The notes below the pieces were generated by a model that was given only the letters and a program-made list of their open reading frames with translations, made no database searches and had not been told where the DNA came from. A program made the position numbers and the translations under genes. DNA of 64,000 bases, from the NCBI RefSeq assembly GCF_964355755.1, contig NC_092671.1, forward strand, positions 10,416,001 through 10,480,000, in the 5' to 3' direction. The stretch's first letter is position 1, and each line of letters begins with the position of its first letter. Positions 138 through 64,000 of this stretch are shown in pieces. The stretch comes from Antedon mediterranea (lineage: Eukaryota > Animalia > Echinodermata).

Positions 138-3100
138 ATGTCTGCAATACACATGCAAAAAATCGATGACGTAGGGGAAGATGGTTTCTTTAACCACGAC
201 AGAGCTCATTATATAACTGCTCCACCGGTAAGTATAATTATAACTGGTAATGGTGCCTAGCCTAGCCTAGGCCTAGGCCTAATTAAAAAAAAAACAAAAA
301 AAACTTAATATAAACGTACTTTCTATACTAAGCTAGGCCTAGGCCTAGGTGAGATAACCTTTTAGGATCCTACCCCCCTAGACCTGGTAGTAGGCCCATG
401 GTTAACTTTTATGATATAGGCCTTTGTATAAAGCTAAATCATTTTTATGAACGTTTATTCATATTAAATTAAACGACCATATTTTTCCAAAACAGACACA
501 TTCGTTTTTAATTTTATTTAAAAAATATTTAGACAGGATAAAAGCATATCAGGTATACCTAGATAATGCACCTGTTTTACATATGGTCCTGTTTTTTTAG
601 CAATAGATCAAAAACATTCATAAAAGACATTAAAAAAGCTTACAACATTACTTACTTACTTTTTAATATATCATCACATCATTCCATGCATCTGTTGTCG
701 TTACCAGTATGACAGTATGATAACTTTTTTTTTCAGAGTGGAGTTTTGAGTGTTCATATGAAAAAGTTACAAAACATAAATGAACAGTGTATCCTTTGCT
801 ATATTACAGTGATTTTTCTGACATTATACTACATCATAGCATGCAATGATGAGAATGAGTGGTAAGCCTATATCAACTTGAATAGGTAAATATGTGGAAA
901 TTACTATAATAATAATAATAATAATAGGTTGCTTTAGTTGGCTCATTTACGTATAACATACACTAATGTAATTTCCAATCATCTTTTTATCTGTTTTCAT
1001 TTATTTTATTTTTTATTCTAAAATCAACGACTCATTTTTCGTTTCACTCGATCCATAATTATAATTATGACAGACAGTATCCATGTACATGCTTGACAAC
1101 TGCACAACGGTGAACCATATATATACATAGTAACAGTTACAGAATCGAGATATTATACTGTGTTTATACATTTACAAACACCCGTTTTAATTAATTATAT
1201 ACACGGCACATTTACTGTAAGGATTAAAATGTCTCTAATGCATAAATTCTATCCATGGAGAAATAAGTTATAAATTGGATCATTTTGTCTCCGAACATGT
1301 TCTTAACACTGAACAGTAATTGGTGCGGTAGATCCAGAGTTGTACATTCGTTTTCGTGTAGGCAATTTCATCAAGACAAGTGGCAGATATACTTCTGAGG
1401 ATGGAACGATCGTCTTTGACGATACCAAACATTTCTCAATAACGGTATCGAAAAATGTTTATTTTAAATGACTGTTAATCTTTTCTATTTAAAGCTCTGA
1501 CTACGCTATAAAACTTTATGTGACAACAACGTGTGATGTGCCCATATAAACATGATGATGTCATATCACTACCATATTTGGGCATATCACTACCATATTT
1601 GAGGAGGAAACCACACATTTTTGTCAAACTCGTTTGATAGTGTAGACAGAGCTTTATAAATTTACAAGTTGATAATTTTCAATGTTCACGTCCAGTACAA
1701 TAATTCAGCTAATGTTCACAAGAACGCCGTTCAACTTTCTATGATGAACAAGCGTATTTTAATACAAGACATTTAAAAATGTCTTTTGTGAGATCACGTT
1801 GTTATTTTGGTTACTGCTCCTGTCATTATTCTCGAACTAGGTCTCTAGAAAGATGAATGATGTTCTCAATGAAGTTCGTGTTGACCTGGTATTAGTTGAA
1901 AACTCACATACGCATCGTATTGTTGGTCATACTGATATACACATGTTTGATATCATTAAGGTAAATATTAACTGTAGGGCCTACTAATGAAGTAAATTGA
2001 AGTTATTATGTACAAAAAACACGCACTATTAATATTTTTTTCTCATATTTAAATTTTTTTAAATATCGCCCTCTTACCCAATTCATTACAAAACGTCTTG
2101 ATGTTGTGATATTAGTGTTCGATCCACCAACTATATGTGCTATTATTATTGCTTAATAACGAGAATTATAAGCAAAAAAATTGTATTGTGCCGTCAGTTT
2201 TAATGATTTTCTTTAATATAAGATTAGTTGTATTATTCCTCCCCTTCAACTAATTGTACTAACTACTCCATTTTATACTCATTACTAACGTTTATAATGC
2301 ATTATCACGACAATAATTTGTAGCCACTATCCATTATGAATATTACGCTATATCATTTACCTTACATGATTAGAGATACATAGATGCTTAATCGATTCGT
2401 CTGATAGCTCTGTATTAATTCTATAGTTTTTTTTCCAATATTTATAGAGTTTATATTTAGCGAATACATACGACATCCGATACAAGCATCAGGTAACTAA
2501 AGCCCACGAAAATGGAACAATTGTTAGTTTGTTAATTGCATATTGTGATAATGTTTTAGACAAAATCGTGACAATACAACGATTTTATTGTTTGTATTAA
2601 TCATGACGTCATTTGAGTGGGTTAAAAATATTATTATCAAAGACAGGAAAAATGATTATCCTATAGTTCTAGAACGAAATTAAAATTTGTGTTGTTCTTT
2701 ATGTTAAGAAAAATGTATGTTCTAGTGTAAGCCTTTAGGCCGATCAATTCCTGGCGAACCATGGTTGTTTAAATCCTAAATTAAACACCATTAGATTGTT
2801 GGTAAGTTTGAGATGGAACTTTGTTTTGCTTATGGGATATTTGGATTTGGATATTCGCATCAACTTGAAAATCGGCAGAAAAAAATCAGCGATATCGTAG
2901 GTCATTCCTTATTTGTTAGGGTCGAACCTCCCGAATACCGGAAGCAATCTAAAAGGTACGTTGCATCATAAAGATATACATACCAAAACATTTTAATATT
3001 AAGGATAGGTCTGAATGCTCAGACAGTGTCTTATTAAACATGTGTTAAGTTCTCGAGACGACCTAAAAACTACGCCCGACCCTACCTCAAGACGACCGTC

Positions 3101-5442
3101 TTGTCGGGATTCAACTCAGATCGCACCAACGAGTCAAGGCGTTTCGTCGGGCCTCGTCGTACGACGCTGTCTGAGTTGGCTTTTAGATCTATCCTTAATA
3201 TTAAAATTATATATCCTTGTTCCCTGCTATAGCTGTTATAACCATTTAAAATATGTGACATAGTGTCAACTATTTATGCGTAGTATATGATGAAAAGTTG
3301 TTACTTTATATTATTCATTATCATCACATTATCGAATAACTCGATTATAGGCTGTACACATCCATATCTTCATATAAAAAATATATTTTAATTTATTTTT
3401 ATATAGTATTTATATGCATTTTTAATGTTTATACAAATTTTATTTTAAATGTTTTTTACACAATCAGTGCAATAGGTGACCTACTAGATAGTGATTAGGT
3501 TCGCTTTTTAGGAATCTCTGCCTGGTTTTGTGTGTTGTTTTCTTGTTGTTTATCCACGTTTTTTTATATTGTATTTTTATGGAGACAAAATAAACGTTTT
3601 AAAACTGCCCACCCATTCCGTTAGAATTTAAAATCTTTTTTATCGTATATAGTCGAAACATTAAGCCTTGTCTACACTATCAAACTTTATGTGACAAAAA
3701 AAATGTGATGTACCCATATATGGACATAGCATATTACTACTTTTTTTTCTTTCTGTAAAATTTGTATTAAAGTAACGTTATTACAGCGATACCTATGAAA
3801 CATCCTGAAATAATACATTTTAAAGAGAAGGCCGATATCGGAAGCTTTCATCTTGATCAAGGTACCAGAAATGTATTGTTTTAATTAGGCCAGATACTGT
3901 AGATATAATATGCTGTTGCTCTTCAATTTAGCGTTAGTGAATGTTTATTGTAAGAATTAATACCTATAATTAAACATTGTCTAATTTGGTGCTGTCTATT
4001 ACTTCGGAAATCTTGATAAAGCAATTATTTTATGTTTTCATCTGACAGATCCAGTTATATCTTCAGTGCAGTTGTTCAATGACGCTGATATTGTTGGAGA
4101 ATCAAGTTTATTGCACAGAATGTCTAAGAGAAGGTTTGTGGCATACGGTACTTAAAGATTGTGCTAATTACAGTTCTATGTCGATAAGAAAGATTATGAC
4201 ATCTATGATATCAATGTGGATGTTTCCGATATTACGTTTTGCCTTTTATTTATTACAGTATAGCTACCAACTTTACATATATAGAATATGTTATACAGGT
4301 AACAATTTTGATGACGAAAGTGGTAGTGATTATTATACTTATTTAGAGTAGCAAAATACTTTTACTTGACTACTTAGGATGAATCGTCTGCAAAACACTT
4401 TCTCACAACTCCATGGACGTCAGCAACGCAAGAAATTCCTTGAGAAACTTGTACTTAGCCATATAGATGACCACGGAGCCGTAGATGTAAGTTGATGATG
4501 AAATTCAATAACAAGTAGGGCCTAGAGTTCCCATTCAAGATGAGATTGAGAGCCAAAACCAGATAGTTTAGCAGCAGCGGTGGGTACCGTAGCTTACATC
4601 GCTTGCCATCATCGAACCGGCTATCATTATTAAAATTGTAATGAACAATCTATGTTATTGTAGTTGCAAAACCCTATAATTTATATGTACCAAATCATAG
4701 TTTAAAGTCAACCTACAACTAAAAACGAAAATAACTTATGGTATTGATGCCGTTATAATCTTTCTTCAGGATCAAGATATCATTCCGGATAAACCTGGAG
4801 TTGGAAATCGTGATGGAGAAAATAGTCCAGGGGTTGTTCCTGGGAATTTAAGTTCTAGCGAGGAAGACGACGAAAATGTTTACACATTAGCTCCAATGCT
4901 CATTATGGCACCAGGTATTTTATATACCTATAAAATAATTACTGTAATATTGGCTTATGATGGCCAAAGTGTAATTAATACCGTAATGCACACACACACA
5001 CATGTTTAATCGCTAATTAACAGGTAAATATACAAATAATGTACTTATTAGGTTTAACAACAAGAGGTAGGGGTCGTGGAGTTGCTGATTTACCGACAGT
5101 TTCAGAGGTATGGGTTGTTATTCTTTTCTTATACCTTGTTAGAAGGTATAATAATTTAAATATAACATTAGTTCTTGGTTGTCGAAATTGTTACGATTAA
5201 TTGATATAAACCCGTATAAGTAATTAATCTAAATGGAATATCTTCATTATATTTAGGAAGAACGATCGAACTCGGCAGACAGCACCACTAGAGCAGACGA
5301 GGCATCATCGAACAAGGAACCTCAAGACAACCAGCAAGCAGCCGAACAAGGTGCATCTGGCGGCGGAGCATCTACGGCACTTGCCCGTGGTCTTTCAAGG
5401 TTCATTAGCCTACGACCATGGAGAAAGACAGCAACGGAATAA
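138..5442 (+). CDS. C2CD6: C2 domain protein, C2CD6/CATSPERT (ALS2CR11, CatSper-tau)-like, 12 exons
   Basis: Exons 138-227, 737-788, 1317-1444, 1841-1960, 2448-2492, 2795-2955, 3773-3861, 4049-4133, 4378-4486, 4770-4914, 5052-5107 and 5257-5442 (TAA) join in frame with GT-AG ends. Peptides GVLSVHMKKLQNI, LYIRFRVG, IVFDDTKHFSITVSRK, IVGHTDIHMFDIIK and FEMELCFAYGIFGFGYSHQL..SLFVRVEPP resemble the C2CD6 signature as I recall it (FMFSYGNFGYGFSHQL..MFMNLAPPP). Confidence 0.8.
789..1316 (+). other. U12-type (minor spliceosome) GT-AG intron in the C2CD6-like gene
   Basis: 5' site GTATCCTTT at 789. Branch box TTCTTAAC at 1300-1307, about 10 nt before the AG at 1315-1316. No polypyrimidine tract. Splicing keeps the frame (Q-L-IGAVDPELY). 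Confidence 0.85.
1493..1653. mobile_element. Palindromic MITE family A (PIF/Harbinger-like), copy
   Basis: Termini AGCTCTG(T)CTAC..GTGTAGACAGAGCT with internal TATCACTACCATATTT repeats. About 13 copies in the window. Confidence 0.8.
2991..3206. mobile_element. TIR-bounded MITE in a C2CD6 intron
   Basis: Inverted ends TTTTAATATTAAGGATAGGTCTGAA..CTCAGACAG / CTGTCTGAG..TAGATCTATCCTTAATATTAAAA around a GC-richer core. Confidence 0.65.
3664..3745. mobile_element. MITE family A, partial copy
   Basis: GTCTACACTATCAAACTTTATGTGACAAAAAAAATGTGATG left end only. Confidence 0.7.
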
Positions 5443-6104: not shown

Positions 6105-7016
6105 TCATCTCGAGCGTATACTACATAACCATTTCATCCGATTTCTTGTAGCTTCTCTAAACTCACAGATCCTCCATCCATACACAATAGGGTTGATCAT
6201 AGAGTATGCTACTGCCAAGTCAAAAAAGGTGGCGTACACTATATCCAAATGATTGTTTTCCATGCATCCCAAATCTTCAAACACGATTTCCAAAATGCGA
6301 AAAATATCAATCGGCAGCCAACATAAAGTACTAGATCCAACAGTAATAGCGAATGTGCGGAGCAGCCTCTTTGATATTTGTAAATCTTGCGATCTAGACG
6401 GGCCTATTTTCTTTTCATGTTTTAAAACAGTTTTATATATCATAATGTAAACCACATTAACCTGAACAAGAAGCGCAAAATTAATCAATGCTAATGCATT
6501 GTGCAGTTCAATCTGTAGTTCAGAGTAGATTAAAGAAATTGCGATTGTAAATGACAATATCCACGTAAAAAATACACCTACAAATAGCCTGTAAGGTGAA
6601 TTAATATCTTTATTAAAAGGATACAACACTACAAGAAGTCTTTCGATGGATATGGCTAACAATGACTGTAACGAAGCGATTACAAATGCTGTGGAAAGGG
6701 CTGTCATAGCTACCGCAGTATCTTGGTCAAAACCATCTCCAACAATAACAGTAATAAGAATTGTTAAAGCAAATAACCCGTCTGCCAGAGCTAAAGAAGA
6801 TGTGAAAATGTATTGACGCTTTCGTAGAGGTTTTTCAAAAATTATTGGCAAAAATACATTGACATTAAACAGTAGTGATAATGAGCACAGTATGTACAAT
6901 ATTGTTACGTTAATACTATCTGTTGAGAGTTGATGGAAAAATATCTCAATTAGATTGAAGTCGCAATAAACTGTCGACGTCTCTGTTAAATTGCTATCGG
7001 TGCTGTTGTTGTCCAT
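6105..7016 (-). CDS. Intronless class A (rhodopsin-like) GPCR, paralog 1 (most divergent)
   Basis: 303 aa with 7 hydrophobic segments, LALAD (TM2), ERL (DRY position), CWLP, NPIVYGWR and N-terminal NxS/T sites. Confidence 0.93.
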   Translation of the reverse strand: MDNNSTDSNLTETSTVYCDFNLIEIFFHQLSTDSINVTILYILCSLSLLFNVNVFLPIIFEKPLRKRQYIFTSSLALADGLFALTILITVIVGDGFDQDTAVAMTALSTAFVIASLQSLLAISIERLLVVLYPFNKDINSPYRLFVGVFFTWILSFTIAISLIYSELQIELHNALALINFALLVQVNVVYIMIYKTVLKHEKKIGPSRSQDLQISKRLLRTFAITVGSSTLCWLPIDIFRILEIVFEDLGCMENNHLDIVYATFFDLAVAYSMINPIVYGWRICEFREATRNRMKWLCSIRSR

Positions 7017-7940
7017 TTTTTATACCGTATTCTTCAGAACATACAATTCAAATACAGTAAAGCAGGTTTATCTCCATTTTGTTAAGCGTTACTTCGGACT
7101 GTATTCAACAAGGACACCACTTGTCCAAATTGTATTCCTTGCGTAATAATCCAATTTGTCATCTACTGTATAGTCCGTAGTTATTACATCATAATCGACA
7201 TATTTTGTTGTATGTATGTTGTATGAACTTCTCCGTGATAATTACAAAAGGTAGACTGGAAATCAGGTTTCGAGTATGCGCAGTAAACAGATGATCTTCA
7301 AATCATGTTATGCAATGTTTGTAGACCTATGGGCCGCCGCCGGGCTTCGAAAATGCAAGTGAATCTTCAGTTTGGCAATTGGGACAAGGTTAGTATTATT
7401 ACTGCGCATGAATCGTCGTATATAGAACGTTATTAAATTCTTAAATTCAATAGCTACAAGCATGACTAGTCATTTGTTTGGTTGAAGATTTAAAATTTAA
7501 TTCTAGTTGACAATAAGTGTAGTGTATACTCAACGTTGCAATTGTTGGTTGGCCATGAAACTGTTTACAGTGCTTTCCGGTCGAAGTTACCGAGTCTCCA
7601 ATAGACAGTTATCAATTCCATAGATTGATCAAAATATAATTAAAACGTACAAAACCTGTATTACCTATAATAGTTAAAGAACCACGTTTGATATCAAATT
7701 TTGATAAACCTTCAATGTATTAAATGTATTCAATACAGGGATATAGGGAAATTGAATAAGTAACTCGGGGATTTGCCTGATCATCAAAGCTGGAGAGACT
7801 GTCATAAGCATAGCAAGAACGATATAATTAACTAAGATGATATAATTGACTATGGCTGGAATACGCAACCAGTCATTGTTACCAGCCAGTTAATTTAATA
7901 GGCCTACTTGGAAAATGTCACTAATACTGTATACATACAA

Positions 7941-8253
7941 TTAACGATTGTCGTTTAGTTGAAGTACCAATTGTAAATTTAAAAACAAATTTATAAACGC
8001 TGTTGCCTTAGATGTAAATTTTATTTTAAAAATATGTGTACGTGTGACATCACTTCTAACCCAGGATTAAATGAATACCACAGAAAGATTATCTGCGTCA
8101 GTTAAAGAACCACGTTTGGATTAGATTAACAATTGTCGTTTATTTTAAGTAGCAATTGTAAATTTGAAAACAAATTTATAAACGTTGTGTGTACGTGTGA
8201 CATCACTTCTAATCCAGGATTAAAGGAATACCACAGAAAGATTATCTGCGTCA
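7941..8253. repeat. Local tandem duplication, about 130-160 bp x2
   Basis: 7941-8100 matches 8127-8253, including TGTGTACGTGTGACATCACTTCTAA..GAATACCACAGAAAGATTATCTGCGTCA. Confidence 0.85.
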
Positions 8254-9062
8254 CTAAACTGTATTATATATAACAATGTGGAGAGTATTCTATGTTCGTT
8301 TTATGTTGTGTTATTGACAAAATCGAATAAAAAAAATTTCTGAAACATACTACGCTTAATAAAATATTAATAACTGATATAATATCAACAATACATATTT
8401 GACATGCCTTGTTCAGTGTTCCGACGTTATGGTGTTTCATTCCGACCTACCGTCCCTGTAGTAAACTATACTATTTACCAGTATAAGATAAGATTACTTT
8501 ATTTCATCCACAAAACAAGTATAATATTTAAAGTAAGATCTACAAACATTAATTATTATTTTATATTTTACGCCTATGCTTTACGAGAAGAACAGTATAA
8601 TAATATATCTTATATTTTAATTGTAAAACCAAATATAATCAATCAGCTTTAATTTGTGTATTTTCTTACACATTGAAACTTATGCACTACAATACAGATA
8701 CCAGTATAATTGCAAATGAAAATCGAAAAATTGCTAAAACAGTCAAGGATTTTATATAGTAGAAGTATATCCTTTTCTTTAGAGTGTTTATGTTTCTGAT
8801 CAATAGCAATATTTTCTTTCTATTCCTGCTAACTGTAGACCATTTTTTGCCCCATTAGCAACATTTCCTCTCTGTTTCTGCCCAGTAGTAATCTTTATTT
8901 ACACTGCTTTCTGGCCAACATCAACATTTCCTTCTATTCCTATTCAGTAAATAACCTATTTTGATTTAGGCATAGGCCTATACACAGCATGATTTTCTTT
9001 ATATTCCTGGCCAGTAATAACCGTATTTCTAAACTGTCGCAAACATTGTTTTCTGTTCCCAC

Positions 9063-10064
9063 CTACTTGGTAATAACCTTTAGGCCTACTGTTGCCGTTT
9101 TCTGAGCAGTATTTTTTCTTTTCTGTACCTGCCCATTAGTAACCTTTTCTTTAGACGGATTCTGTTTGTCGCAAATAAATAACCGTTTCTTTACGCTTTT
9201 TCTAATATCTTTATTTCTCCATCCGTATACTAATGGGTTAATCACGGCATATAATGCTGCGAAGTTAAAAGCAATAGCGTAAACGTCAATATAGATTTCT
9301 GACGTGCAACTAATGTTAAGAAATATGTCTAAAAGTGTAGTTACGTTTATTGGCAACCAACATAGTGCGTATGACGATATGATTATTGAAAATGTTTTTA
9401 GAAGTTTCCGAGTTGTACTGACATTTGTATTTGATTGCAGGGATCCTCTGAATCTATGCGCCTCCATTTTCTTATCTTGTTTAGCAACATATCTATATAT
9501 CATAAAGTAGATGGAATGAAGAATGTGAATCAGACAGATTTTGAATATAGTTAGGAAAGTCTCCATTTCATATAAGTGTCCAAATGCAAACAATAAACCA
9601 ATGAATATAAACGAAAATAACCATATTAATGCTAAAATAAAAAATATTTTTCGAGCAGAATTCACATTTGGATTAAATGGAAACAAAACGATAACCAAGA
9701 GTCTTTCAACTGCTATAGCTAGCAATGTGAACAGGGACACAAGCGAAGCTGATATTCCAACAGTTGCAACTATTATACTGGATGTAGTTGAAGCGTTTTT
9801 AATTTTAACTGAAATGAGGAAGAAAACAGCAAACAGTCCATCTGAGAGTGCCAAAGAACAAGTAAATATATGACTTCGCTTACGTAGTTCCTTTTCAACA
9901 ATAAACTGTAGAATCACAAACACATTTAATAATACTGCGATAACACAAGTTATTTGAAACAGAACTTTGTTAACGTGGTATTCATCTGCTCCTAATATTT
10001 GGTAGTATATTCCTGATAAAGAATAATTGCACAAAAACGATCCTGTTTCGTTACTTTCCATCAT
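9063..10064 (-). CDS. Intronless class A GPCR, paralog 2
   Basis: LALSD, ERL, CWLP and NPLVYGWR. The likely start is MMESNETGS at 10064/10061 by paralog alignment, although the ORF track extends to 10139. Confidence 0.92.
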   Translation of the reverse strand: MMESNETGSFLCNYSLSGIYYQILGADEYHVNKVLFQITCVIAVLLNVFVILQFIVEKELRKRSHIFTCSLALSDGLFAVFFLISVKIKNASTTSSIIVATVGISASLVSLFTLLAIAVERLLVIVLFPFNPNVNSARKIFFILALIWLFSFIFIGLLFAFGHLYEMETFLTIFKICLIHILHSIYFMIYRYVAKQDKKMEAHRFRGSLQSNTNVSTTRKLLKTFSIIISSYALCWLPINVTTLLDIFLNISCTSEIYIDVYAIAFNFAALYAVINPLVYGWRNKDIRKSVKKRLFICDKQNPSKEKVTNGQVQKRKNTAQKTATVGLKVITK

Positions 10065-13279: not shown

Positions 13280-13700
13280 AGCAGCGGCGAGACTGTCTTT
13301 CTGTTCCTGTCTGTCCAGTAATAGTAACAGATTACTCTCTCCTGGCAAGTGGTAACCGTTTATTTAGACTGTTTCTGAGCAGTAGTAAAATTTTTCTTCC
13401 TATCCTGCTCTGATAGTAACCGTTTCTTTAGATTGCTCTCTGTCTGTCCAGTAAGTAACTGTTTATTCAGACTATTTCTGAGCAGTAGCAAGATTTTTCT
13501 TTCTATCTTGCTCTGATAGTAACCGTTTCTTTAGAGGCCTATATTGCTTCTGTTCCTGCCAAAGGGAAACTGTTTTTGTTCCTGTCAAATAGTAATTACG
13601 TTTATTTACAGTAGACTGTTTTTGTTCCTGTCCTGTAAGTAACCGTTTAATTAGACTGTTTTTGTCCCTTTCCAGTAGTAACCGTTTCTTTAGATTGTTT
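13280..13700 (-). repeat. Degenerate repeat array, about 35-40-bp units, spanning the GPCR4 C-tail and 3' UTR
   Basis: Recurrent GTAACCGTTT(C/A)TTTAGA(C/T)TG..TTCCTGTC units. The first units encode SKETVTTGKGQKQS. Confidence 0.7.
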
Positions 13701-16620: not shown

Positions 16621-17915
16621 TCTATATATAAATTTACGTAAGGGCAAAATTCGGTAAATCGCGCCTTACTTCTAGAATTTTTACTCGATGGTATATAAAG
16701 TTGGTTCGTACTTTCGGTACTGATTTTAACCACCTGATGTAACCCTGTTTACTAATTAAATTAAGTTAGATAATTAGTTATTGACGATTAAAACGAATTT
16801 AGGTTCAACGATTTGCCCCAAATAGGGGTGTTTTCCGATCGTGGTATACACTGTCTAATGGATGTCCATCTTGAAAAATACCCGCCACAAAAATGCGAGG
16901 AGGCTTCGCATTTTCCTATCTCCTCCTACGAAATTGTTTTTAATAGCTGAAAACCGGTTGAACAGTTCGAGTACAGCATCATAATGTTGAAGACAGGCCG
17001 ATTTTCTTTAAAAAATACTATTTTGATACATTTAATATATGTTTTTACAAATGTATTGATTTGTGATGAATGGAACATTCCAAATTATTTGGTTTAACCA
17101 TACAGGTATAGATTTAGATTTATGGGCCCCCTTGGAGAATAAACATAAATAGTATTGCAATGCTGTACAATACTGTTAAGGTATTAACCACTTTTGATCG
17201 CAATTTGAATCGCAAATTTCTTACTGTGAGTGTTGGTACTGTTAGATGTAATATAAAAATATATACAAATAAACTTTATTACTGTGAGTGTGGGTAGGCC
17301 CTACTGTTAGATTATAAACATATAATATACAAATAAATAAACGTTATTACTGACAGTTGCTTCTCAACGTTTGTATTAATTAATAATTTAAAAATATATA
17401 AACGTCGTAGTGGTGTATCGTTACATGTACTTTACTATTTCAATCGACTATGACAGTGAGAGTTTTAACAAAGTACCGTATTAAATCGTAAATGTTTTAC
17501 TGTATTTAGTGGTATATTATTTATCGGCCTATAAAACATTAAAAACAATATTTCGTTACTGAGTGGATAAGAATATATTTTAAAATGTTTCCTCTTTGTA
17601 CCTATCTTCTTCCCCCATCCCTCAACCCTTAATGTTACATACAAAACACAAATTGGGTTTGTTTAAATGAGTCCAAATAAAAAAATTTGACTCATTTTGT
17701 TTCTCTCTCGGAAGTAATTCTCAGGGTGCTAATTTTGGTTGACTACATAAATCATTGTGTATATTTATTCGTTTCTGTAAACGACAATGTATTATAGTCC
17801 TGCGGTACGTACATTTGAAATCTCCATTTTTTTCTCGCTGGAAATACTGTGTATTCGAGAACCATCTGTGGGCACGACCTAGATGGTACGCGAGCGAAGC
17901 GAGCGTGCCATCTAG
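16621..17915 (+). mobile_element. Non-autonomous Helitron
   Basis: 5' end A|TCTATATATAAAT at 16621. 3' GC-rich hairpin (ACGCGAGCGAAGCGAGCGT) followed by CTAG|T at 17912-17916. Inserted between A and T with no TSD. Confidence 0.7.
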
Positions 17916-18058: not shown

Positions 18059-24798
<6,740 letters not shown>

Positions 24799-29490: not shown

Positions 29491-30281
29491 TATGGAACGC
29501 CGTTTACGCAACATTTCGATGATATGAATTTTATGACGCGATATGTGAATGAAATGCATCGATATGAATTGAATGGCGTGATATATGAATGAAATGTTTT
29601 GAATTGAATGCTTTGAATTGAATGTTTTGAATGAAATGTTTTGAATGAAATGTTTTGAATTGAATGTTTTGAATGAAATGTTTTGAATGAAATGTTTTGA
29701 ATGAAATGTTTTGAATGAAATGTTTGAATTGAATTGAAAAGTCAAACTATTGGCGGCGTATGTCATTCCCGCTCGCGATTTTTTTTCAACCTCTTAATAG
29801 GCCTAAGCATGGGTACCCTCATCTCCTTTCAACGCTGTCATCAATATGAATCCTTTACAGAGACTCCCTAACAGACCTGAAACATTGGAATACATATTTC
29901 CGAACCCAGGTCTGTTAGGATTCTCTGTAAAGGCAGCGTGGAAGAAAAGAGATGAGGGTACCCAGGCTTAGGCCTAAGAGGTTGAGAAAATAATCGCGAG
30001 CGAGAATGACATACGCCACCAATAGTTTGACTTTTCAATTCAATTCAAACATTTCATTCAAAACATTTCATTCAAAACATTTCATTTAAAACATTTCATT
30101 CAAAACATTTCATTCAAAACATTTCATTCAAAACATTTCATTCAAAATATTCAATTCAAAGCATTCAATTCAAAACATTTCATTCATATATCGCACCATT
30201 TAATTCATATCGATGCATTTCATTCACATATCGCGTCATAAAATTCATATCATCGAAATGTTGCGTAAACGGCGTTCCATA
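29491..30281. mobile_element. Foldback non-autonomous DNA transposon, IS3EU-like
   Basis: Inverted arms of about 380 bp start TATGGAACGCCG and end CGGCGTTCCATA. 6-bp TSD CAATTC at 29485-29490 and 30282-30287. Internal 14-mer TGAATGAAATGTTT arrays and a loop of about 30 bp near 29880-29908. Confidence 0.85.
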
Positions 30282-52600: not shown

Positions 52601-55600
52601 CGCATCCAAAACATTGGTATCAAAATCAACTTGTACTGGGAAAGTTTTTAACTATTTTCTAGTCATATTTTGTTTATATATATATATATATTATATAACT
52701 TGCACTAATGAATGCCTGAATGTTCTGCTAGTCTTTATGGTTTTGATTTAGCTTTTTGCTTATTTTATTTTTGAGATCCAGCCACAGCATTGTCATTTTT
52801 TCAGTAATTTATATATATGTTGTATATACAATCTGCAGACAGTACTGTTTCGATTTTATCAGATCTCGTCAGTGCAGATCAGGTTTCGAAATGATATGTA
52901 CTGCAGAACTGGCACAATATATAGTCTGAGCCAGGTATGCGGGACATGGTACACTGATTATGAACACAAAGAGTGCACAAACTAAAGGATTTTTGTTGTT
53001 GCAGATTCCCGCTTCTGCTGGGGGTATTCGTACCATACTTGTAGATGACTTGTTTACTTATGTTGGAACGACACTCAATTGTATACTGAGGTCAGAGTTG
53101 CAGGACACTGGACCATTGTTATCAGGGGCAATCATTGAAAAAAACCTCATAACACAGGTAACAACAAAATACTATTTTTAACTTGAACTTACTTGAAATG
53201 TTTATTTTATTGTTCATTCAACATAATTATATACTTTAAACATATAAATTTATATTACCAAGTGAGAATGATTATTAAAGGATAAGTCATGACACTCTCA
53301 CCTGGTCATTCCAGATATATATTTGCCCTACTCTCTGACGTAATTATTCAATATACATATGAGAATACCTGATCACTAGCCTGGCATTCATACCCAGTAG
53401 ACCACCAAGCCTGCTCAAGTAAAGTAGTGCAAACATCTGACTATTTGATTTAGCTTCCAGATGCAAAGCTACTTTGAAATAGTTATTAAATCATCATTGT
53501 AATTTTTAAAAGTAGATTTTTCTGAGTCCGTAATTTTCTTCAAAATTCATTCTGGTAAACTAGACATTGTGTGCCAGCCCACGACAGTGGATTGTATTTA
53601 TTTAAATGTCTAAACTATCAAACTTTATGTGACAAAAAAATGTGATGTGCCTATATATGGATATGATGATGTTGATGATGTCATATCACTACCATATTTG
53701 GGCACATCACACTTTGATCACAAGTTTGATAGTGTAGACAGAGCTTAAAACAAGGGATAAAGCTATAACAAACTGTTTCTGCTGTCACCAAATTTTTACC
53801 TCAATTTCCATTTAGGGACACTATGATGAAGTACATGGCTTGAGGGTGTACCCAGCACAGACGGCTGTTGCACCTTCATTGCAACAACATGCTCAGGGTG
53901 TGTTCCTAACATGTGGATACGATGGTATGGTCTGTTGCTATGATTCCAATACACATCAAGCATTGTGGAAGCATTGGGTAAAAGATTGCAATATTCAGTG
54001 CGTAGATATTCATCCAAATGGCACCATCCTAGTGATGGGTGGTAAGAGTGCAGAGTAAGTATTTCATTGCATGGTCAGTTAATTGTTACTTTAAGACTAC
54101 TTACCGGCTTTAGAAAGTTCTGTCCTATCTAACACTAGCAGGTCTGAAAATAATACCAAAAAGTGGTCTGGAATTGGGACCGTGGTCCGGATTGCCTCCA
54201 AAGTAATCCTTGACCACATATCTATCTGTATTTTTATTTTAGTAAAGATATTGCAATAACTTTTTAAGTATTCCTCCAAAACGACAGACACATGCGATCG
54301 ATTACATATACCTCCTTGGCGGAAGTAAATAAAAGGATATTTATATTAAGAAGTAGAGAAAAAATGAGTTTCGATCATAGATGCTTATGGCATTCATGTT
54401 TTTAAATCAAAAAATGTATATTTGAAAATACTTTGCTTTGAAGTGACATACAATCTCTCCGCTCCGCTTAAGCATCTTTCACATCTGTTCCGGTCCTGCT
54501 CAAGCAAATAAAATCAGATCTCAATGTTTATTTTCACGATGCTTCATGCAGCTATGCACCAATCTTTTTACATGATATACTGTACATGTAGCTCATGGCG
54601 CTTAATTACCAGGAAGAGTCGCTAATGCTGTACTCGCAAACCTGAACTAGAGCCAGAACAAGACTGGAACAGATGTGAAAGATACTTTAAACAAATACAA
54701 TTTATGGAATAATTTTGAATACATTCCTGTCCGTAGTTAGTAAGTATGTAAAATAATGAAACGATCAGTTTCATAAGAAATTTAGTGAGTTTCCATCACC
54801 ATAATTGTTTTTTTCTCTCTTTCGTTTTTATTCTAAAACACCAGTATTGGCAGCAGGTTAGTGCCTTGAAATAGTTAATTGCGTTTTTATATTATAGACT
54901 TATATAGCATTTTGATTTTTCTTACTATTTTGTAAGAAATTTGTGTTAGAAATTTCCTAACTTTGCTTTTGTGTGTTGTTGGCTTCAATATTCTTTATTT
55001 TTCAGTAAATGTTTCTATTTTCTTCAATAATTAATATTACTTAATGTTACTTTAGCTTAATCACACATAGTAATTTTAGTAACAGTATATAATAATGTTG
55101 TGACACATTTGGCACCCCATACTTGAGGCAGTAATGACAACAAAATGGTTACTTTATTTAGTTCCTATGGCAACTTGTTAAATAGTATAAGTAGTTATGA
55201 AGATATTATAACAAACAAGTTTTATTTTACTTTTTGAAATGATCACACTATTTTAAAATCTATGTACGAGTTCTTCTTTTTGTGTCTCTATTTGCTGTGT
55301 ATAAACAACTTGTTAAGGATCTTTTATTCTGGATTTATTTTAATCTTTGCTGCATGTTGCTTTAATCTTTTTGTGTTTTGTTGCAAATTGTTCAAAAGTT
55401 ACATGAAAATAGTCTTACTTTACTAAAAGTATATTTGTAATAAAAAGAACTATTTATAAGATTATTTATTTATGTTAGTATTTTATAATATTAATAGATC
55501 TGTGCTATAGATTCTCTAATGATACATACAGTATGCCTGCAGTTTTTGTAATAATTAGCATTACATAGTAGAGTACATAATTAGTTTAGTATAATCTGGT

Positions 55601-58074
55601 TAATTCTTCATGTTCAATATTAATATCTTAATTATCTAATTTTAAAATACATCAAAAATTTAAATTTATACATAATTATTCTGTTTTTCAGTCTCTGCTT
55701 TTTTAGTATTAATCTTGAAGGTAGTTTGTTTGAGTTGAATCGGTCAAAGGTCAGCAAGAGTATGATAACAACAGTTAAATTCTCTCCTGGTAAGTTTTGA
55801 GCATATGTTTATTCAATTTGCATTGGTTGTTGGTACAGTGATGTTTAACAATATCTCTCTCCTCGTTAAGGTCTATTTTCAACTCTTTAGAAGTGCACAT
55901 TTTGATGTATTTGGAAATCTATAGATCCAAAACACTGATGATGTGGGTATCACTGGATCTCAATAGAGATACAAATGAAATAAAAGCTAAATCAAAACGA
56001 AAGAAATGCCAAGCTTTTAAAAAACACTATTCCTTCATCAGGACAATAAAATAAATCTATAATTTATTTCAATTTGTTAAGCTTAGACATATCAGAGAGT
56101 TGCATTAGAGAGGGATGTTGGAAAAAGGGGAGAGCGAACATGGATTTAGTTTAGTAATAATAGAGCACTCTCCTTTTTTCCTTGTTGTGCCTTTTATAAG
56201 GAGAGTTTACAGTAGTTTCAAATTAATTAAATTAATTTGTCTTCTTGAAAATATTGTTGTAATGCTAATTTACCTAATGTACATTACTTCCTTATGAATA
56301 TTCATAAAGATGGACAAACACTAGCAGCTGGTTGCTATGATGGTAGAATCACAACAGTGAGATTGATTGATGATGGCAGGAGGACAGAGATCGTTGGAAA
56401 GTGTAACATTCATCAAAGTTCAATAACAGGTCTTGATTGGTCAAAAGATAAATGTTATAATGAAGATTACATTCTTCAGAGCAGTTCAAGTACATTTGAG
56501 TATTTTAATTGTAAGTAATTATCATAATTGATTAATTTATTTGATATTTTAATTACAATATTTATCAAGATGGTCAAATTTGGAGTGAGTGCAGAATCTC
56601 TTTGAGCTTTGCGCTATTCTCACTCCTGCTTATAAATATTATTATAATTACTAAAATATAAATGTGTCTTACATTATTAAAAGAAGGAAATTGACATTAA
56701 TTTTTTTGAAGGTTTGCATGGTGAAATCAATAATGTTGAGGACAATCAAAGTATATTGATCGAAACAGTTCTTTTCAGAACTATAAACTTTGTATGAACA
56801 TATTAATTTTCTATTGATGTGTTTGCTATCTTTTTCATTTTCAGTTACGCCTTCATGCGAGTTGATCAACAATTTGGTAGAAACTAGGAATGCAGAATGG
56901 ATGACAAACAATTGTATGGTTGGTTACCATACAAATGGTTAGTAACCATTTTTTTTTTATTACAGTTTATTTGGAAAATTGCCTAAAATATAGTGCTGTC
57001 CAGGATAACTTTATATAAGCTTAAGAGATTATGTCTGTTGGGGTCCCTTTATAATCTAAAATAAATAATTGTATTGTTTAATAGAATATAAAATAGAGTT
57101 AATTAGTTAATTTAAATTATTTGGTTTAAAAATCGCCTTTTTGTTATAAAGCTCTGTCTACACTATCAAACTTTATGTGACAAAAAAAATGTGATGTGCC
57201 CATATATGGACACAATGATGTCATATTGTCATATTACTACCATATTTGGGCACATCACACGTTTTTTTGTCACATAAAGTTTGATAGTGTAGACAGAGCT
57301 TAAGAATTGCGTGGGAGCTACACACCGTACCACTGCACTCAAATAGGTGTAACAAGTTACTTTAAATGAGTTATATAATCTATCATGCATCCTCCATCTA
57401 CCCCGACCCCATCTCCTCTAATCTGACATTTTTTGTATCTTACCATATGACATATATTATATACAATTCTGCAAAAGTGTTTATTATATACACTATTGAT
57501 TTGTAGGAATTTGGGGTGGTGAAATGGCCAGCACTGAGTTTACTACCGTTGACAGATCACATGATCAAAATCTGTTGGCAGCTGGTGATGAAGATGGTGA
57601 TATTAAATTGTACACACACCCTTGTAGTAACCAAGAGGTATTTTATTTTATTTTATTTTTAAAACCAGAAACAACAACAGAAACAAATCCGCCACTTACA
57701 GCTTGGTTGAAAAGAGACAATTACAACAACTCAGAAACACTTAAATTACGACGAAACAGATAAAGATTGGAATTAGAAATGTCGATATGCGGATGGGCCT
57801 GGACTAAACTATTATAAGATAAACTTAATCTACTGATGTAACCACTTAATATACTGATGTATTTACATTAACAAATTATAATTTAAGAGATTTATGAATA
57901 CATAATATTTATGAGATTTCTATGATACATACATTTTTTTTTCAGGCAAAATTTAAGAATTTTCACGGTCATGCTTTCGGAGTTAAATCAGTGGTGTTTG
58001 GAGAAACCGATAAATTTCTTATATCTATTGGTAATAGGGACTGTGCAATTATTCAGTGGAACTTGATCAAATAA
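34621..58074 (+). CDS. EML/EMAP-family protein (HELP + tandem WD40 propellers) with N-terminal EF-hand region and long Ser/Pro/Lys-rich linker
   Basis: Probable ATG at 34621 (AAAATGG). EF-hand exons 35074-35388, 35925-36130, 37824-37921 and 38629-38771 (DKDPSRNGQIPKKKF, CDEEGNGMVNWFEF). HELP motif PKENLTLNWIYGYRGNDCRNNL (49354-49498 / 49869-50018). WD exons with TGDSNG, SGGRDG, GHYDEVHGL, TCGYDG, AAGDEDGDIKLY and GHAFGVKSV..DCAIIQW. TAA at 58074. Confidence 0.85.
34684..34840. mobile_element. MITE family A copy
   Basis: TTA|AGCTCTGTCTACACTATCAAAC..GTTTGATAGTGTAGACAGA. Confidence 0.8.
37953..38115. mobile_element. MITE family A copy
   Basis: Full TIRs AGCTCTGTCTACACTATCAA / TTGATAGTGTAGACAGAGCT. 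Confidence 0.85.
38856..39011. mobile_element. MITE family A copy with TAA TSD
   Basis: TAA|AGCTCGGTCTACAC..GTGTAGACAGAGCT|TAA. Confidence 0.85.
41774..41915. mobile_element. MITE family A copy (decayed right end)
   Basis: AGCTCTACCTACACTATCAAACTAGTTTGA...GGGCACATCACATTTTTTTGTCAC. Confidence 0.7.
44333..44814 (-). mobile_element. Short non-autonomous RTE-clade retroelement (5' UTR fused to 3' end)
   Basis: 10-bp TSD TGAAAGTAGT at 44323-44332 and 44815-44824. The minus strand has an RTE-like 5' UTR motif CTAGGAGAAGGAAAACTCTGA and an RTE-like 3' end TTGTCTCTCGAGACAGACGGCTGCCA. GC-rich, with no RT ORF. Confidence 0.75.
45270..45425. mobile_element. MITE family A copy
   Basis: TATGTGACAAAAGAATGTGATGTGCCC..ACTAGTTTGATAGTGTAGAC. 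Confidence 0.75.
45973..45999. mobile_element. 27-bp hairpin with 7-bp TSD, P-element-like end remnant
   Basis: TTTGTAC|CATGGAGTA-CTTATTCTT-TACTCCATG|TTTGTAC. Confidence 0.65.
46176..46303. mobile_element. MITE family A copy (decayed)
   Basis: TCTGTCTACACTATCAAA..GTTTGATAATTTAGACATAGCT. Confidence 0.7.
49646..49807. mobile_element. MITE family A copy (decayed)
   Basis: AGCTTTATCTACAC..GTGATGTGCCC..TAGACGGAGCT. Confidence 0.7.
50780..50925. mobile_element. MITE family A copy
   Basis: CTGTCTAAACTATCAA..CTAGTTTGATATTGTAGAC. Confidence 0.7.
52049..52183. mobile_element. MITE family A copy
   Basis: CTACACTATCAAACTTTATGTGAC..CTAGTTTGATAGTGTAGA. Confidence 0.7.
52831..52879 (-). ncRNA. Type I minimal hammerhead ribozyme (Penelope-type, palindromic stem III)
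   Basis: The minus strand reads AUCUGCA-CUGACGA-GAU(CUGAUAAA)AUC-GAAA-CAG UA CUG-UC-UGCAGAU. All core nucleotides are present, stem I is 7 bp, and the GUC cleavage triplet is at 52840-52838. Confidence 0.85.
53605..53745. mobile_element. MITE family A copy
   Basis: TGTCTAAACTATCAAACTTTATGTGAC..GTGTAGACAGAGCT|TAA. Confidence 0.8.
54104..54328. mobile_element. Fragment of a non-autonomous DNA element (family uncertain)
   Basis: Ends in ACAGACAC..ATACCTCCTTGGCGGAAGTAA, a terminal motif I recognise from widespread animal repeats. Confidence 0.35.
54471..54686. mobile_element. Harbinger-like MITE
   Basis: TTA|AGCATCTTTCACATCTGTTCCGGTC ... GACTGGAACAGATGTGAAAGATACT|TTA. Confidence 0.8.
57150..57300. 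mobile_element. MITE family A, near-perfect palindromic copy with TAA TSD
   Basis: TAA|AGCTCTGTCTACACTATCAAACTTTATGTGACAAAAAAA..TTTTTTTGTCACATAAAGTTTGATAGTGTAGACAGAGCT|TAA. Confidence 0.9.
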
Positions 58075-58805: not shown

Positions 58806-58991
58806 AGCTTTATAGCACACATGCGTTATCGTATACAACTCTGTGCAATCAGCTTTATAGCACACATGCGTTATCGTATACAACTCTGTGCAATCAGCTT
58901 TATAGCACACATGCGTTATCGTATACAACTCTGTGCAATCAGCTTTAGGCCTATAGCACACATGCGTTATCGTATACAACTCTGTGCAATC
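58806..58991. repeat. 45-bp tandem repeat x4
   Basis: AGCTTTATAGCACACATGCGTTATCGTATACAACTCTGTGCAATC in three identical copies. The fourth carries an extra GGCCTA. Confidence 0.95.
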
Positions 58992-60113
58992 AGAAACAAC
59001 ATTCATCATCGTTATCACCACCACCACCAATCGCGGGCGCTCAAACCACCACGTGAACTACGGACGATATCGAGGCGGCGACAAAGAAATATAAATAATT
59101 TCAAACATTAATTTAGCTATAGCGTTATGGTTCTTAATGTGTACATGTTTCAGTCAACGGTTCGTGTTGTCAATAATATTTTCAAGTATGTTTCAGTATT
59201 TATTTTCACTTTCCTGGTAATGCAATCTTCAAAATTCCGTTGCGTTTTGTTCCCAAATATTAGGAATGCTTCAAAATGTACATTCAAATCATGGAGCATG
59301 TTCAAATCCAATGGTTCCGTTAACACAATTATTGATGTCTGACCTTGTTAATAATCCTACCAATTTGTCTGAACCAGATGAGAATGTCTTTAGTCTAACA
59401 CGCGTGTTTACAAGCTAAAGCACTAATCCACATATATGTCGACTTATTTTTTCTTTATTGACCATGCTTACATTTTAATTTAAGTAATTGACATTATTTT
59501 ATTTAATATATTCCATTTTACTTCCATGGTTGGTTATATTCTGTTATAACAACCGTATTACAACTGTCGTTTAAATTAGGCTTAGACCTACATGACGAAA
59601 ATTAACTTAAGGTAGGTTTGGATTGGAACTAGTCATAGCTCAATAGCTAGCTTAAACGACTAAACACATGGAACAGATGGGATAGATATAAAAAATTGGC
59701 CCATCTAATAACTTCTTCGCCTTAAACCATGATCAAGAACCCCCTGCAAACAAATGTTAAATGAGTCCCTTAAAAAACTGTAATTGGTGTAAGCTTGTTT
59801 ATGACATGTACATTAAATTGGCAGTTTTCGACAATTAGAGTCCTAATTTTGCCACTGATTTGCTCAGGGCTTTTGCTCCCAATAAATTGTATGTTAAACA
59901 AATCATGGAGGTCTAAACATCCTCTTAAGGGACGATGAAATTTACTTTATACTAGGTAGAAATACGCTCACGATAAAAAATGTACTGTAAGAGATCATTA
60001 TAAATTTTATTTGAAATAATAAAAATAGGCCTATGGGTTTGTAATAATTACAACCTCAAAACAGCAATTTAGAACTCGGTTTGTATGATCGCCCTTTAAG
60101 CTAGGATCATCTC

Positions 60114-63100
60114 TCAGTATTTCAGTATTCAGTATTTATTGGTACTCACTTTCGAATCAGTGGCACACACCTTTCGGTGGTGCGTCCATACAAATATAAA
60201 CAACAACATATAAAAGGTAAATGATGATAAAACTTACATAATTAACTTACATTGGAAAAAAAAACAAAAACAAAAACAAAAACAAATGTACAGTAGTAAT
60301 TGCACACTTGAGTAGATACTTAAAAACAATTGTATAACGAGCAAATCAATAAATCGATGCAATAGGTCAGTAGTAAATACACGTTAGGGCCTACTTACAA
60401 AATTCAGACAGAAAAAAAAATACTTATACATAGTAAATAAAAAAAACAAACTAAAAAACAAAACAAAAACAAAAACAAAAAAAAAACAGAATAAAGGTAC
60501 AATAGGTGAACAGTATAAATAATACATAATCATGATAAAATTACTACGGTACATAAATCGAAATAAGCACAAATATATGTTTATATGTACTTGATATTAT
60601 AGATATAGCAAACAGCAAGTACAAGATTTTATTTGTTTAATGATTAGTTATTGGTATATCTAACTGGTCTATCAATAAACTAAATAAGCTAAAATGTCTG
60701 ACTGAAAAAAAAAAACAAAAAAAAAAACTTATACATAGAAAATAAAACTAAAAAACAATTGGATAACAGTATAACGATACAATAGGTCAAAAGTATAAAT
60801 AATACATAATCATGATTATTTTTACAAAAATCGAGATAAACACAAATATATGTTTATATGTATTTGAAGTTAGATAAGCAAATAAACTAGTTTATCAATG
60901 TAAAAGCCAAATAGGCTAATTATTGCGGTAATGTTGGTAATTTCTTATATATATCTAACCTGGTATCCCAGGCACTTTGTAGGTATTTTTTACAAGCCAA
61001 GTCAAAAATTTCCCCAAGAACAACGTTTTCATTATATAAATTGTCTAATAATGCTTACAATGCTTTTATCAACACTTTCAAAAAATTATATAATAAAAAC
61101 TTTAAAAAAAAAGAAAAAGTTCAAGAAAATCACAAAAAGTATAAAAAGTTCAAACAACCATGGATGAGCTCAAGACTCTTAAAGTCTAGCAAAAGAAAAC
61201 ATGTGTTGTACAACAAATTTATAAAACATCCCTCGTCTAAAAATAAGGATATTTATAAAGAGTTTAATAAGTCATTTATGCGTACATGCAAAACGGCAAA
61301 GAAATCATATTATGAAAATGTTTTTAACAATACTAAAGGAAATAAAAAAAAAAACATGGAATATTATAAATGATATTATAAATCCAGGTGGAGGCAAAAA
61401 TAATGTTCCATCCACTTTTACATCTGGTGACAAACTCATAGAGGGTTGTGAGCCTATTGCAAACCACATTAACGATTATTTTATTAATGTTGGTCTCAAG
61501 GTACGAGACAGTATTGAGCCATCAACGGCACAATACTCTGATTACCTGCTAAACAGGCAAAGTAACTCTATGTTTTTCTACCATGTAAATGAGGAGGAAG
61601 TGTTAAAAGTGATTCAATCACTTGATGCAAACAAAACACCTGGTTTTGATAATATTTCACCAAAGGTAGTCAAGGCAGTTGGTGATGCTATTGTAAAGCC
61701 CTTGACTTATATATTCAACGTATCTCTTCACTCCGGCTCAATACCGGAACAGATAAAAATTGCAAAAGTAATTCCCATATATAAAAAAGGGGACCGTCAT
61801 TTAGCCTCGAATTATCGCCCGATATCACTACTACCAATTTTCTCTAAAATCTTTGAAAAGATAGTCCATTCCAGATTGTATAATTACTTTAAAACTTACA
61901 ATAGGCCTATACTAAATGATTGGCAATACGGCTTCCGAAACAATCATTCAACCTCCCACGCTATAATTGATCTGATCCACAAAATACTAAAGGCATTTGA
62001 AAACAAAGAGTTCGTAATTGCCACATTTATGGATTTGTCAAAGGCATTTGATATTATTGACCACAGTATCTTACTGAACAAGCTATTCCACTATGGTATA
62101 AGAGGTGTTACACTAAAATGGTTCAGTAACTACTTAAAATCACGAAAGCAATATGTTTTTATAAATGGTACTTCGTCTAATATTAAGGAGACTAGTATTG
62201 GTGTTCCACAAGGGTCCGTTTTGGGACCTTTGTTGTTTCTTGTATATGTAAACGATATATGTAACTCAAGTACACAAATTGAATTAATTAGCTTTGCCGA
62301 TGATACAACAAGTGTGGAAATAACCTGAACGCATTGGCAAACACTATGAATGTGGAACTAGATAGAATTAATATGTGGTTCAAAGCTAATAAACTTTTAT
62401 TAAACACCAGCAAAACAAATTACGTAATCTTTAAAACTGCCCAAAGGCGTATTATTACAACCAACATTGAATTGAAAATGAATAACATTACTTTAGAACA
62501 ACAAAAAAATGTAACATTTCTTGGGGTTGTAATAAATGAGAACCTTTGCTGGAAAAATCATATAAGGCTTATTAGCAAAAAAACCGCTAGGTCTATTGGA
62601 ATATTGATAAAAACTAGACATTTTTTTCCTAATTATATTTTAACAAATTTGTATAATACATTAATTCTACCGCACCTTCAGTATGGAAACATTATTTGGG
62701 GCAGTACATATGATAGTACACTAGAATCCCTTCTTAAACTCCAGAAAAAGGCTGCTAGAATAATTTTATTTAAAAAGCCATGGCAACATTCTGAGCCACT
62801 GTTTAAGCAATTAAATATACTTAACATACAAGATATCAACAGAGTTACCGTCCTAGGTTTCATGGCCCAGATTAAAAGCAATGTTTTACCCAGACGAATC
62901 CAAATGATATTCAAAAGAAACGAAAATACTACCCATAATCTTCGAAATATTTGTAGCGTAAAACAACCATACTCTAGGTTAACGTCTGGTCAACATTTTA
63001 TCAGTATTCACGGACCGAAACTATGGAACGAGCTCTGTAGAAATCACTTAGATATTGTTAACAAAAATTATAAAATACTAAAAAAATATGTAAAAAGAGA

Positions 63101-64000
63101 CATTTTATCGAATTACAGAACTTAAAATGCTTCACTCATAAAATATAGATGCATATATTATGCATTTGTGTTGGTGTGTGCGAGTATACACACATAGTAC
63201 AAATAATCATGTTAAAAAAACAGTATCGATTTTTGATGATGAACAACTCTAAAATGTATATAGGAATGTTTTTTTTTTATTTTGTATCTATTATGTTGTG
63301 TTTATTGTTTTATGTTTTTTATGTAAAAGGGTCCTGCGAAAACAGAAGTGTAAACTTCTCTATGCAGGATCCTTGCCATCATTTATGCTATGAAACTGTA
63401 TTTATAAACGATGAGTAAATAAATGTGAATTGAATAACAAATGTAATTTCATTTCAGAGGTTCCTTCGTAGAAAGATTTGCAATAATGTTCAAACCCGTT
63501 ATTCATTAATTGTAATTTCATTGGGTAGAAGATTTCTTCTCTTAATTTACTAAATGTATTACATTCTAACATAAAGTGTGCGATAGTTTTAGTGTCATTA
63601 TTGCAGAGTGCACACATACCCGTACTCGTGGGTGACCATGACTGTTTCCTACCTTCAAGGTTTAGAGAGTTCGATCTCGCCTTAAATTTCAAACAACTTC
63701 TTTTAAAGTCATTTTTGTAAAGAAGGTATGGTTCTAGTATCGGTTTATTCTTGTACAATATATATTGTGTCAGAGATGATTTTGATTGTGCTCTCTTCTG
63801 CCATTCGTTATTATCGATATCTTTGTTCTTGCATTTAGGCCTAAATTGAGTTAACCAATTACCAGGTGATTCGTTGGTGAACATATCACCCATGTTACAT
63901 TTATGTAAGGCTTCTTTAACCTGATTTAACCATCCCCATTTTAATTTATCTTCAAGAATGTTTATGGCGTTAAAAATCACATTGGACCATCTGTCCTTCT
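60114..64000 (-). mobile_element. Non-LTR retrotransposon 3' part (C-terminal CCHC knuckle, RTEX/L2-like), interrupted by another LINE
   Basis: The ORF piece ending at 63433 has FKARSNSLNLE..CALC..HFMLEC..EMKLHLL. It continues at 61051-60920 as LDNLYNENVVLGEIFDLACKKYLQSAWDTR..*. AATAAA and an (ACTGAAT)n tail lie at 60140-60114. Confidence 0.8.
61052..63432 (+). mobile_element. 5'-truncated, frameshifted CR1/L2-group (Crack/Daphne-like) LINE with reverse transcriptase
   Basis: Motifs KTPGFD, NYRPISLL, QYGFR, FMDLSKAFD, GVPQGSVLGPLLF and FADDT. Frameshifts in the A-run near 61350 and near 62310. 3' stem-loop GGGTCCTGC..GCAGGATCC at 63329-63372, tail AATAAATGTGAATTG and flanking AATAA repeats. 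Confidence 0.92.

Follow-up and report, generated by a model that had tools for sequence, protein, structure and literature searches.

A 64-kb stretch of DNA from the echinoderm Antedon mediterranea (contig NC_092671.1, positions 10,416,001 to 10,480,000; animal DNA of 31% G+C, called the window below) is strewn with one short motif, TAGGCCTA, in which GGCC stands between two copies of TA. This motif and its shorter and longer variants are genuine insertion scars, polarised at two sites and differing between alleles at one locus; they are most likely transposon footprints of a known kind. Excision footprints are textbook knowledge, usually seen one site at a time; here, no 8-mer of the window is more over-represented than this one stereotyped scar, and unrelated DNA contains it as well.

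Abundance of the motif and its origin at TA

The window contains 30 copies of TAGGCCTA (overlapping count), which tops all 8-mers in over-representation under Markov models of orders 0 to 3. Thirty simulations per order gave mean expectations of 0.37, 0.70 and 1.73 copies for orders 1, 2 and 3, with a maximum of 4; an order-4 model, which is trained on the motif itself, gave a mean of 7.9 and a maximum of 13. GGCC is flanked by TA on both sides 30 times, and by the other three A/T palindromic flanks 1, 2 and 0 times. The 9-base forms number seven (six TAGGGCCTA and one TAGGCCCTA) versus 0.1 to 0.5 expected in the simulations, and TAGGGCCCTA does not occur in the window. The 7-base forms (seven TAGCCTA, three TAGGCTA) show no window-wide enrichment (10 versus 5.2 to 6.3 expected), being enriched only inside two hotspots (7 versus 0.05) and at background outside them (3 versus 5.1). 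Outside the hotspots lie 17 of the 30 TAGGCCTA copies, versus 0.5 expected, two of which (29798 and 29969) belong to the two arms of one inverted repeat. An earlier note on this DNA had named 22 single positions, and a member of the family stands at every one (18243 taken for the range 18243-18600); its estimate of more than 20 copies over a low chance expectation is borne out by the Markov background, and of the variants it counted in, the 9-base forms are over-represented, TAGCCTA and TAGGCTA within the hotspots only. The isolated and informative sites are as follows.

1975, 4516, 7899, 8973, 9081, 11069, 14933, 20848, 27577, unstranded: isolated 8- or 9-base scars lacking a window paralogue
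28108, 33132, 33279, 35472, 43980, 60026, 60385, 63836, unstranded: further isolated 8- or 9-base scars lacking a window paralogue
17215..17350, plus strand: local duplication whose first copy has an empty TA and whose second has TA-GGCCC-TA at 17295 (alignment)
58806..58993, plus strand: four 45-bp tandem units, units 1-3 with empty TA, the fourth with TA-GGCC-TA at 58946
61902..61909, plus strand: in-frame scar within the reverse-transcriptase open reading frame (ORF) of a long interspersed nuclear element (LINE), adding Arg-Pro (homologue alignment)
29798..29976, unstranded: motif at matching positions in both arms of one 811-bp inverted repeat

Three comparisons of empty and filled sites carry the case for insertion. 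Alignment of the local copies at 17221 and 17295 leaves a single clean 7-base gap at TA, which between two copies may be a gain or a loss; the duplication sits within a repeat of very high copy number (~10^3-10^4 times single-copy depth). Among the tandem units at 58806-58993, three of the four hold TA and one holds TA-GGCC-TA, the units being otherwise identical. For the LINE, 120 homologues were retrieved, 110 of them scorable and 10 without the anchor motifs. The anchor-to-anchor spacing is 34 in 110 of 110 scorable homologues and 36 in the window copy, and the gap falls exactly on Arg-Pro, the residues encoded by the motif at 61902. As read from these sequence comparisons, the direction from TA to TA-GGCC-TA is shown at two sites, 58946 and 61902, which supports the view of the motif as a block insertion at TA with the TA doubled, rather than a product of substitution. 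Both pairs that the earlier note had pointed out (17221 and 58806) are real on alignment and, with the LINE, give its proposal of insertion with TA duplication three separate comparisons; origin by substitution, which it had named as one outcome that would overturn the idea, is opposed by the polarised sites, where TA changes as one block.

The paralogues of 25 isolated sites were sought within the window. Two have an empty paralogue, two are each other's filled paralogue, 52174 is ambiguous and 20 lack a paralogue; the masking kept 35 bases of each query's own flank, and scores of exactly 70 are self-matches. At these 20 sites we infer insertion. The 29798/29969 pair appears to be a single event that was copied.

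Several features adjoin these sites. The scar at 61902 lies in a LINE-type reverse-transcriptase region (61225-63125) with two overlapping frames and ~50% identity to its best database relatives. The inverted repeat at 29481-30291 is foldback-like, 811 bp long, with 305-bp arms (96% identity), 14-bp internal repeats and the motif in both arms. TACAGTA and TACTGTA, the words of Sleeping Beauty footprints, occur 45 times in the window versus 18 to 24 expected and never within the GGCC hotspots, probably as a second scar class. TACATGTA shows no excess in the window (4 versus 3.4 expected). TAGACCTA/TAGGTCTA have six copies (7322, 18426, 42964, 58226, 59583 and 62588; 1.5 expected), for which decayed scars or a further scar class are candidate readings.

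Hotspots, metagenome loci and allelic differences

258..347, unstranded: hotspot 1, nested scar units in two arrays, one of 4 and one of 2
18243..18599, unstranded: hotspot 2, in intron 1 of a xylulokinase gene, mixed 5-, 6- and 7-base units
18059..18112, plus strand: xylulokinase coding exon 1, 18 codons, read from the sequence; GT donor at 18113, next acceptor AG at 18628
18243..18280, unstranded: 38-bp scar array that this animal's second allele lacks (contig records)

Hotspot 2 holds 16 family motifs within 500 bp, whereas 5000 random draws reach at most 6. It lies 130 to 490 bp behind the first coding exon of xylulokinase, a gene identified from a later exon and an FGGY_C domain match; the best match of this exon is in the crinoid Anneissia japonica (89% identity), with two starfish ranking behind. 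If four 4-base units of lesser certainty are included, the hotspot has 10 arrays at 44 TA sites versus 22 at 6594 TA sites elsewhere, so that this intron is ~70-fold denser in scars per TA. CpG content does not mark the hotspots of the window. Just upstream of the xylulokinase start ends, in a hairpin, a non-coding repeat (16640-17915) at ~10^3-10^4 times single-copy depth, which we take to be Helentron/HINE-like. The same repeat occurs at ~98% identity in run X2 (organism A), where most of the other contigs continue unlike the window; trace DNA or transfer is possible.

Similar arrays were collected from metagenome contigs scanned with a 19-base array query, which gave 114 loci (L001-L114) totalling 384 kb. 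These loci were chosen for carrying an array and give no measure of how common the motif is. Because GPCR, Hairy-Orange and C2H2 zinc-finger genes are present in them, they point to mostly animal-like DNA, some being probably not animal. Automatic de-duplication and masking of 300 bp around the searched array left 263 kb, with similar results after de-duplication by hand. This sequence holds 129 copies of TAGGCCTA (2.75 expected), 150 of TAGGCTA/TAGCCTA (23.4 expected) and 10 GGGCC forms (1.2 expected), and neither a GGGCCC core (0.12 expected) nor a GGCGCC core. Isolated 8-mers (n=118) and 7-mers (n=117) share one flank bias: at position -1, G is raised 1.7- and 1.6-fold, C lowered to 0.33 and 0.60 and T to 0.68 and 0.74; at -2, T is raised 1.3-fold in both and G lowered to 0.46 and 0.54 (8-mer and 7-mer, respectively); at -3, A is raised. 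As 7-mer and 8-mer flanks are biased alike, the bias fits one agent making both forms. The window flanks (n=16) show no significant bias at -1 and -2. The majority of empty sites in the loci resemble RTAY rather than TWA.

Outside the searched arrays, the loci are also rich in TACATGTA (19 versus 4.6) and TACCGGTA (12 versus 2.0), suggestive of further TA-anchored scar types there. One locus carries on its minus strand (L027:6191-10324) an uninterrupted 1378-codon ORF of a long terminal repeat (LTR) retrotransposon, with protease, reverse transcriptase, RNase H and integrase domains.

How do the arrays grow? Scar units in the window are clumped beyond random re-hits (P=0.003 and 0.04, by number of occupied sites), and two loci, L028 and L029, contain repeated 8-base higher-order units and differ from each other in array content. 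Since arrays exceed the clumping of random re-hits and these loci repeat higher-order units, slippage or a preference for old scars probably contributes to them.

A single sample, probably of the assembled animal, supplied the allele contigs in three runs. The same 103-bp record in all three runs joins 18139 to 18281; in run X6 it has a depth of 150, the window allele one of 156-158 and the flank common to both one of 290. The 15 linking letters of this record agree with the stretch immediately preceding the array, and their last two are TA; the second allele thus lacks the 38-bp array at 18243-18280 and ~90 bp upstream of it, a difference that may be a gain or a loss. The same record has 11 gap letters within 18281-18349, the length of one 5-base and one 6-base unit, and in run X8 the positions 18387 and 18449 lie 14 letters further apart, as calculated from how far each is from the contig end (the letters of the 11- and 14-base differences fall outside the 12 of 44 hotspot allele indels covered). 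It is thus implied that hotspot length changes run both ways between alleles. The alleles show nine single-base differences across 1251 bp from 18320. In each run, most of the 74 to 79 contigs that fit in part pile up at the array; the genome therefore carries similar arrays at other places. Organism B (X4) yielded no contig of the hotspot itself and five contigs with similar short arrays.

Origin of the scars

We consider it probable that the motif family consists of excision footprints of a TA-targeting cut-and-paste transposon. Given that origin, the element would have, with a modest balance in favour, ends of GGC rather than GG or GGG. A Sleeping-Beauty-like cut three bases inside each end would leave two GGC overhangs. 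Their joining at a 2-base overlap would produce TAGGCCTA, and this 6-base form could dominate because GC pairs perfectly with itself; joining at a 3-base overlap would produce TAGGCTA/TAGCCTA, and at a 1-base overlap TAGGGCCTA/TAGGCCCTA. Where a region is accessible, rounds of insertion and excision, together with some slippage of existing units, would then build mixed arrays, which probably also grow by slippage. The GGC-end step draws support from the common flank bias of the loci and from the excess of CAG-type words in the window (45 versus 18-24). The GG(G)..(C)CC ends proposed in the earlier note are a poorer fit than GGC..GCC: neither the window nor the 263 kb of loci contains TAGGGCCCTA, and TAGGCTA/TAGCCTA are abundant in the loci.

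Several observations weigh against this reading, the missing parent most of all. Inverted-repeat scans of the 64-kb window and the 384 kb of loci found no TA-flanked element with GG..CC inverted ends, and no DDE transposase was found among the 20 ORFs scanned (14, being 10 of the 41 long locus ORFs and 4 from the window, plus 6 further ORFs). With no parent found in ~450 kb, the mechanism is inferred. GG or GGC ends are not reported, in the available text descriptions, for the TA-type families compared. The canonical 3-overlap product is not enriched outside the hotspots of the window, and the zero count of GGGCCC is low in power, 0.12 being expected by chance. The loci favour G over A at -1, in contrast to ATATATAT, the flank preference of Sleeping Beauty and ZB, and the 5-base core (7 copies) exceeds the 2-4 bp range of Tc1/mariner, within which GGC and GGCC fall. 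Some excesses in the loci lie outside the GGC-end prediction: TAGGGCTA (17 versus 4.9), TAGGGGCCTA (6 versus 0.24) and TAGGGTTA (12 versus 4.4). Locus hotspots are no richer in CpG than their surroundings (24/58, p=0.26), so that the promoter link comes from one gene. None of six bridged isolated sites (4516, 5406, 7899, 8973, 9081 and 14933) has a missing unit, with at most 4 gap letters, in a weak test where high-copy repeats swamp the matches, contigs collapse alleles and 12 of 136 indels were covered. In the other loci, 12 allelic pairs spanning 34 kb show 159 substitutions and 55 indels, none of which is a clean unit at an isolated site; 8 of the 55 lie in or at the edge of one array. The earlier description of the system as highly active is therefore shown to hold only at the hotspot, where alleles differ. 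Its statement that no autonomous parent is visible in the window agrees with the inverted-repeat scan, and its suggestion of a transposon origin is plausible, short of a parent in the window or loci.

Apart from scar arrays, the scans returned one candidate, a 330-bp element (L052:482-813) whose inverted ends include TA-GGCG; it was rejected, as its inverted repeat reaches two bases outside TA. Also in the window are a 165-bp miniature inverted-repeat element (~13 copies, presumably Kolobok-like), whose AG..CT ends adjoin TTAA-like flanks, and a cluster of ORFs.

1490-1656, 3663-3747, 34682-34840, 37952-38117, 38853-39016, 41771-41905, 45284-45430: copies of the 165-bp miniature element
46175-46306, 49643-49810, 50779-50928, 52048-52176, 53607-53748, 57147-57305: further copies of the 165-bp miniature element
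6105-16136, minus strand: five single-exon ORFs in tandem (281-363 codons, 55-87% DNA identity), putative seven-helix receptors

A host process could make such scars with no mobile element, if a nuclease made a staggered cut at TA, a repair polymerase or telomerase added G to both 3' ends and the ends were ligated head to head. Such a process would explain the missing parent; a break hotspot would give the high regional density of hotspot 2; TAGG is in register with the TTAGGG telomere repeat; and the loci show a mild excess of TAGGGTTA. Telomerase, however, would be expected to favour T at -1 and to add three G, and it is disfavoured because T is depleted at -1 and GGG cores are rare, TAGGGCCCTA being absent; the window also has no copy of TAGGGTTA. 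Untemplated base addition would be expected to be variable, whereas here one product dominates. We regard this process as improbable.

Could the motif be a microsatellite-like unit spreading by replication slippage from chance seeds? The clumping of units and the higher-order repeats of L028 and L029 point that way, and the shorter state of the second allele could equal a deletion between direct TA repeats. However, slippage copies neighbouring bases and cannot create GGCC de novo at 58946 and 61902, and the 17 copies outside the hotspots are single units. The idea is very unlikely, being refuted as sole cause by the two polarised single insertions; it would account for part of the arrays, not for their seeds.

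Equally doubtful is a family with a 3-bp target, Zator or PIF/Harbinger, both of which have GG ends, with repair keeping only TA on each side. The 3-bp or TWA duplications expected from partial accounts of these families contrast with the 2-bp duplications in all three pairs, AAGGCCTA, expected from TAA targets, occurs once outside the hotspots, and the empty sites in the loci are not of the TWA type. Finally, a palindrome selected as a protein-binding site near gene starts would suit the densest cluster, close behind the first coding exon of a housekeeping gene, and deserves very little credence, given a motif that arises as a block and not by substitution, stands inside a LINE ORF and a tandem repeat, is missing as a whole array from one allele and shows no CpG contrast in 58 loci; scars may have been used as binding sites later.

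Implications and comparison with known systems

If the footprint reading is true, the scar spectrum predicts the GGC ends and cut geometry of a transposon family and provides a record of transposition with no element left behind. Such scars would likewise contribute substantially to frameshifts, small indel polymorphism and the turnover of regulatory introns, and would mislead motif discovery in these animals. The motif is presumably common in sea urchins, fish and some insects. A wider proposal, which we hold only tentatively and think rather unlikely, is that an undescribed agent cutting at TA (a transposase family with GGC ends, or one that no longer depends on an element) acts in the germ line as a genome-wide 5-7-base insertion mutagen across unrelated animal groups. 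It would strike its own scars again and remodel introns close to genes so quickly that the two chromosomes of one animal differ by whole arrays.

A literature search whose coverage left most subscription journals, Repbase and Dfam outside found no description of the motif as a scar, and the predicted family could not be matched to any published one found. The comparisons below draw on passages of the cited papers; those of PMC9179366 give nothing on element ends. Tc1/mariner footprints are built like the scars described here, with a few fixed bases between two copies of TA (10.1101/659086, PMC2874221, PMC13148408, PMC7913693), and duplication of a TA target, characteristic of IS630-Tc1-mariner, is found in all three empty/filled comparisons. 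The closest likeness is to Sleeping Beauty, whose footprints are TACAGTA/TACTGTA (10.1101/659086): both have a doubled TA, a short fixed core, shorter and longer variants, and a 3-base overhang and end joining (both proposed here). The core is CAG/CTG in Sleeping Beauty and GGCC/GGC/GGGCC here, and the dominant core has 3 and 4 bases, respectively. Sleeping Beauty scars come from a transfection assay with a known element, whereas here only scars are seen, as a standing genome-wide load with nested arrays.

Tc1 and Tc3 of Caenorhabditis elegans also leave a stereotyped TA insertion scar, there through end joining (PMC13148408, 10.1101/659086), Tc1 with a +4 scar in 78% of somatic events, as cited in PMC13148408. 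The net gain here is +6, and the worm scars are mainly somatic, whereas these are inherited and allelic. The core of Tc1/mariner footprints spans 2-4 bp (PMC7913693). ZB, a zebrafish Tc1/mariner element, shares the TA target, short footprints and some bias to open chromatin and transcription starts (PMC7913693); its bias is slight compared with one intron ~70-fold denser here, and its flank preference, ATATATAT as in Sleeping Beauty (PMC8934666, PMC7913693), differs from the G-rich -1 position. With respect to such an AT-rich palindromic target, the loci have T at -2 and A at -3 raised, but G at -1 raised above A; the window sample (n=16) is small.

ISL2EU, Sailor, Zator and PIF/Harbinger resemble the proposed element in cut-and-paste movement with short A/T target duplications (PMC4482050, PMC8533490, PMC10045372), but none of the four combines a TA duplication with GG or GGC ends. 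PIF/Harbinger duplicates TWA (PMC4482050) and Zator 3 bp (PMC10045372). ISL2EU duplicates AT (PMC4482050) and was rejected, since AT-GGCC-AT occurs once in the window versus 30 times for TA-GGCC-TA. Sailor (DD82E), which duplicates TATA and ends in GT or CC (PMC8533490), was rejected too, as the cores here start with GG and only TA is doubled. Mosquito/DD37E duplicates TA (PMC10379824) and may be the source family.

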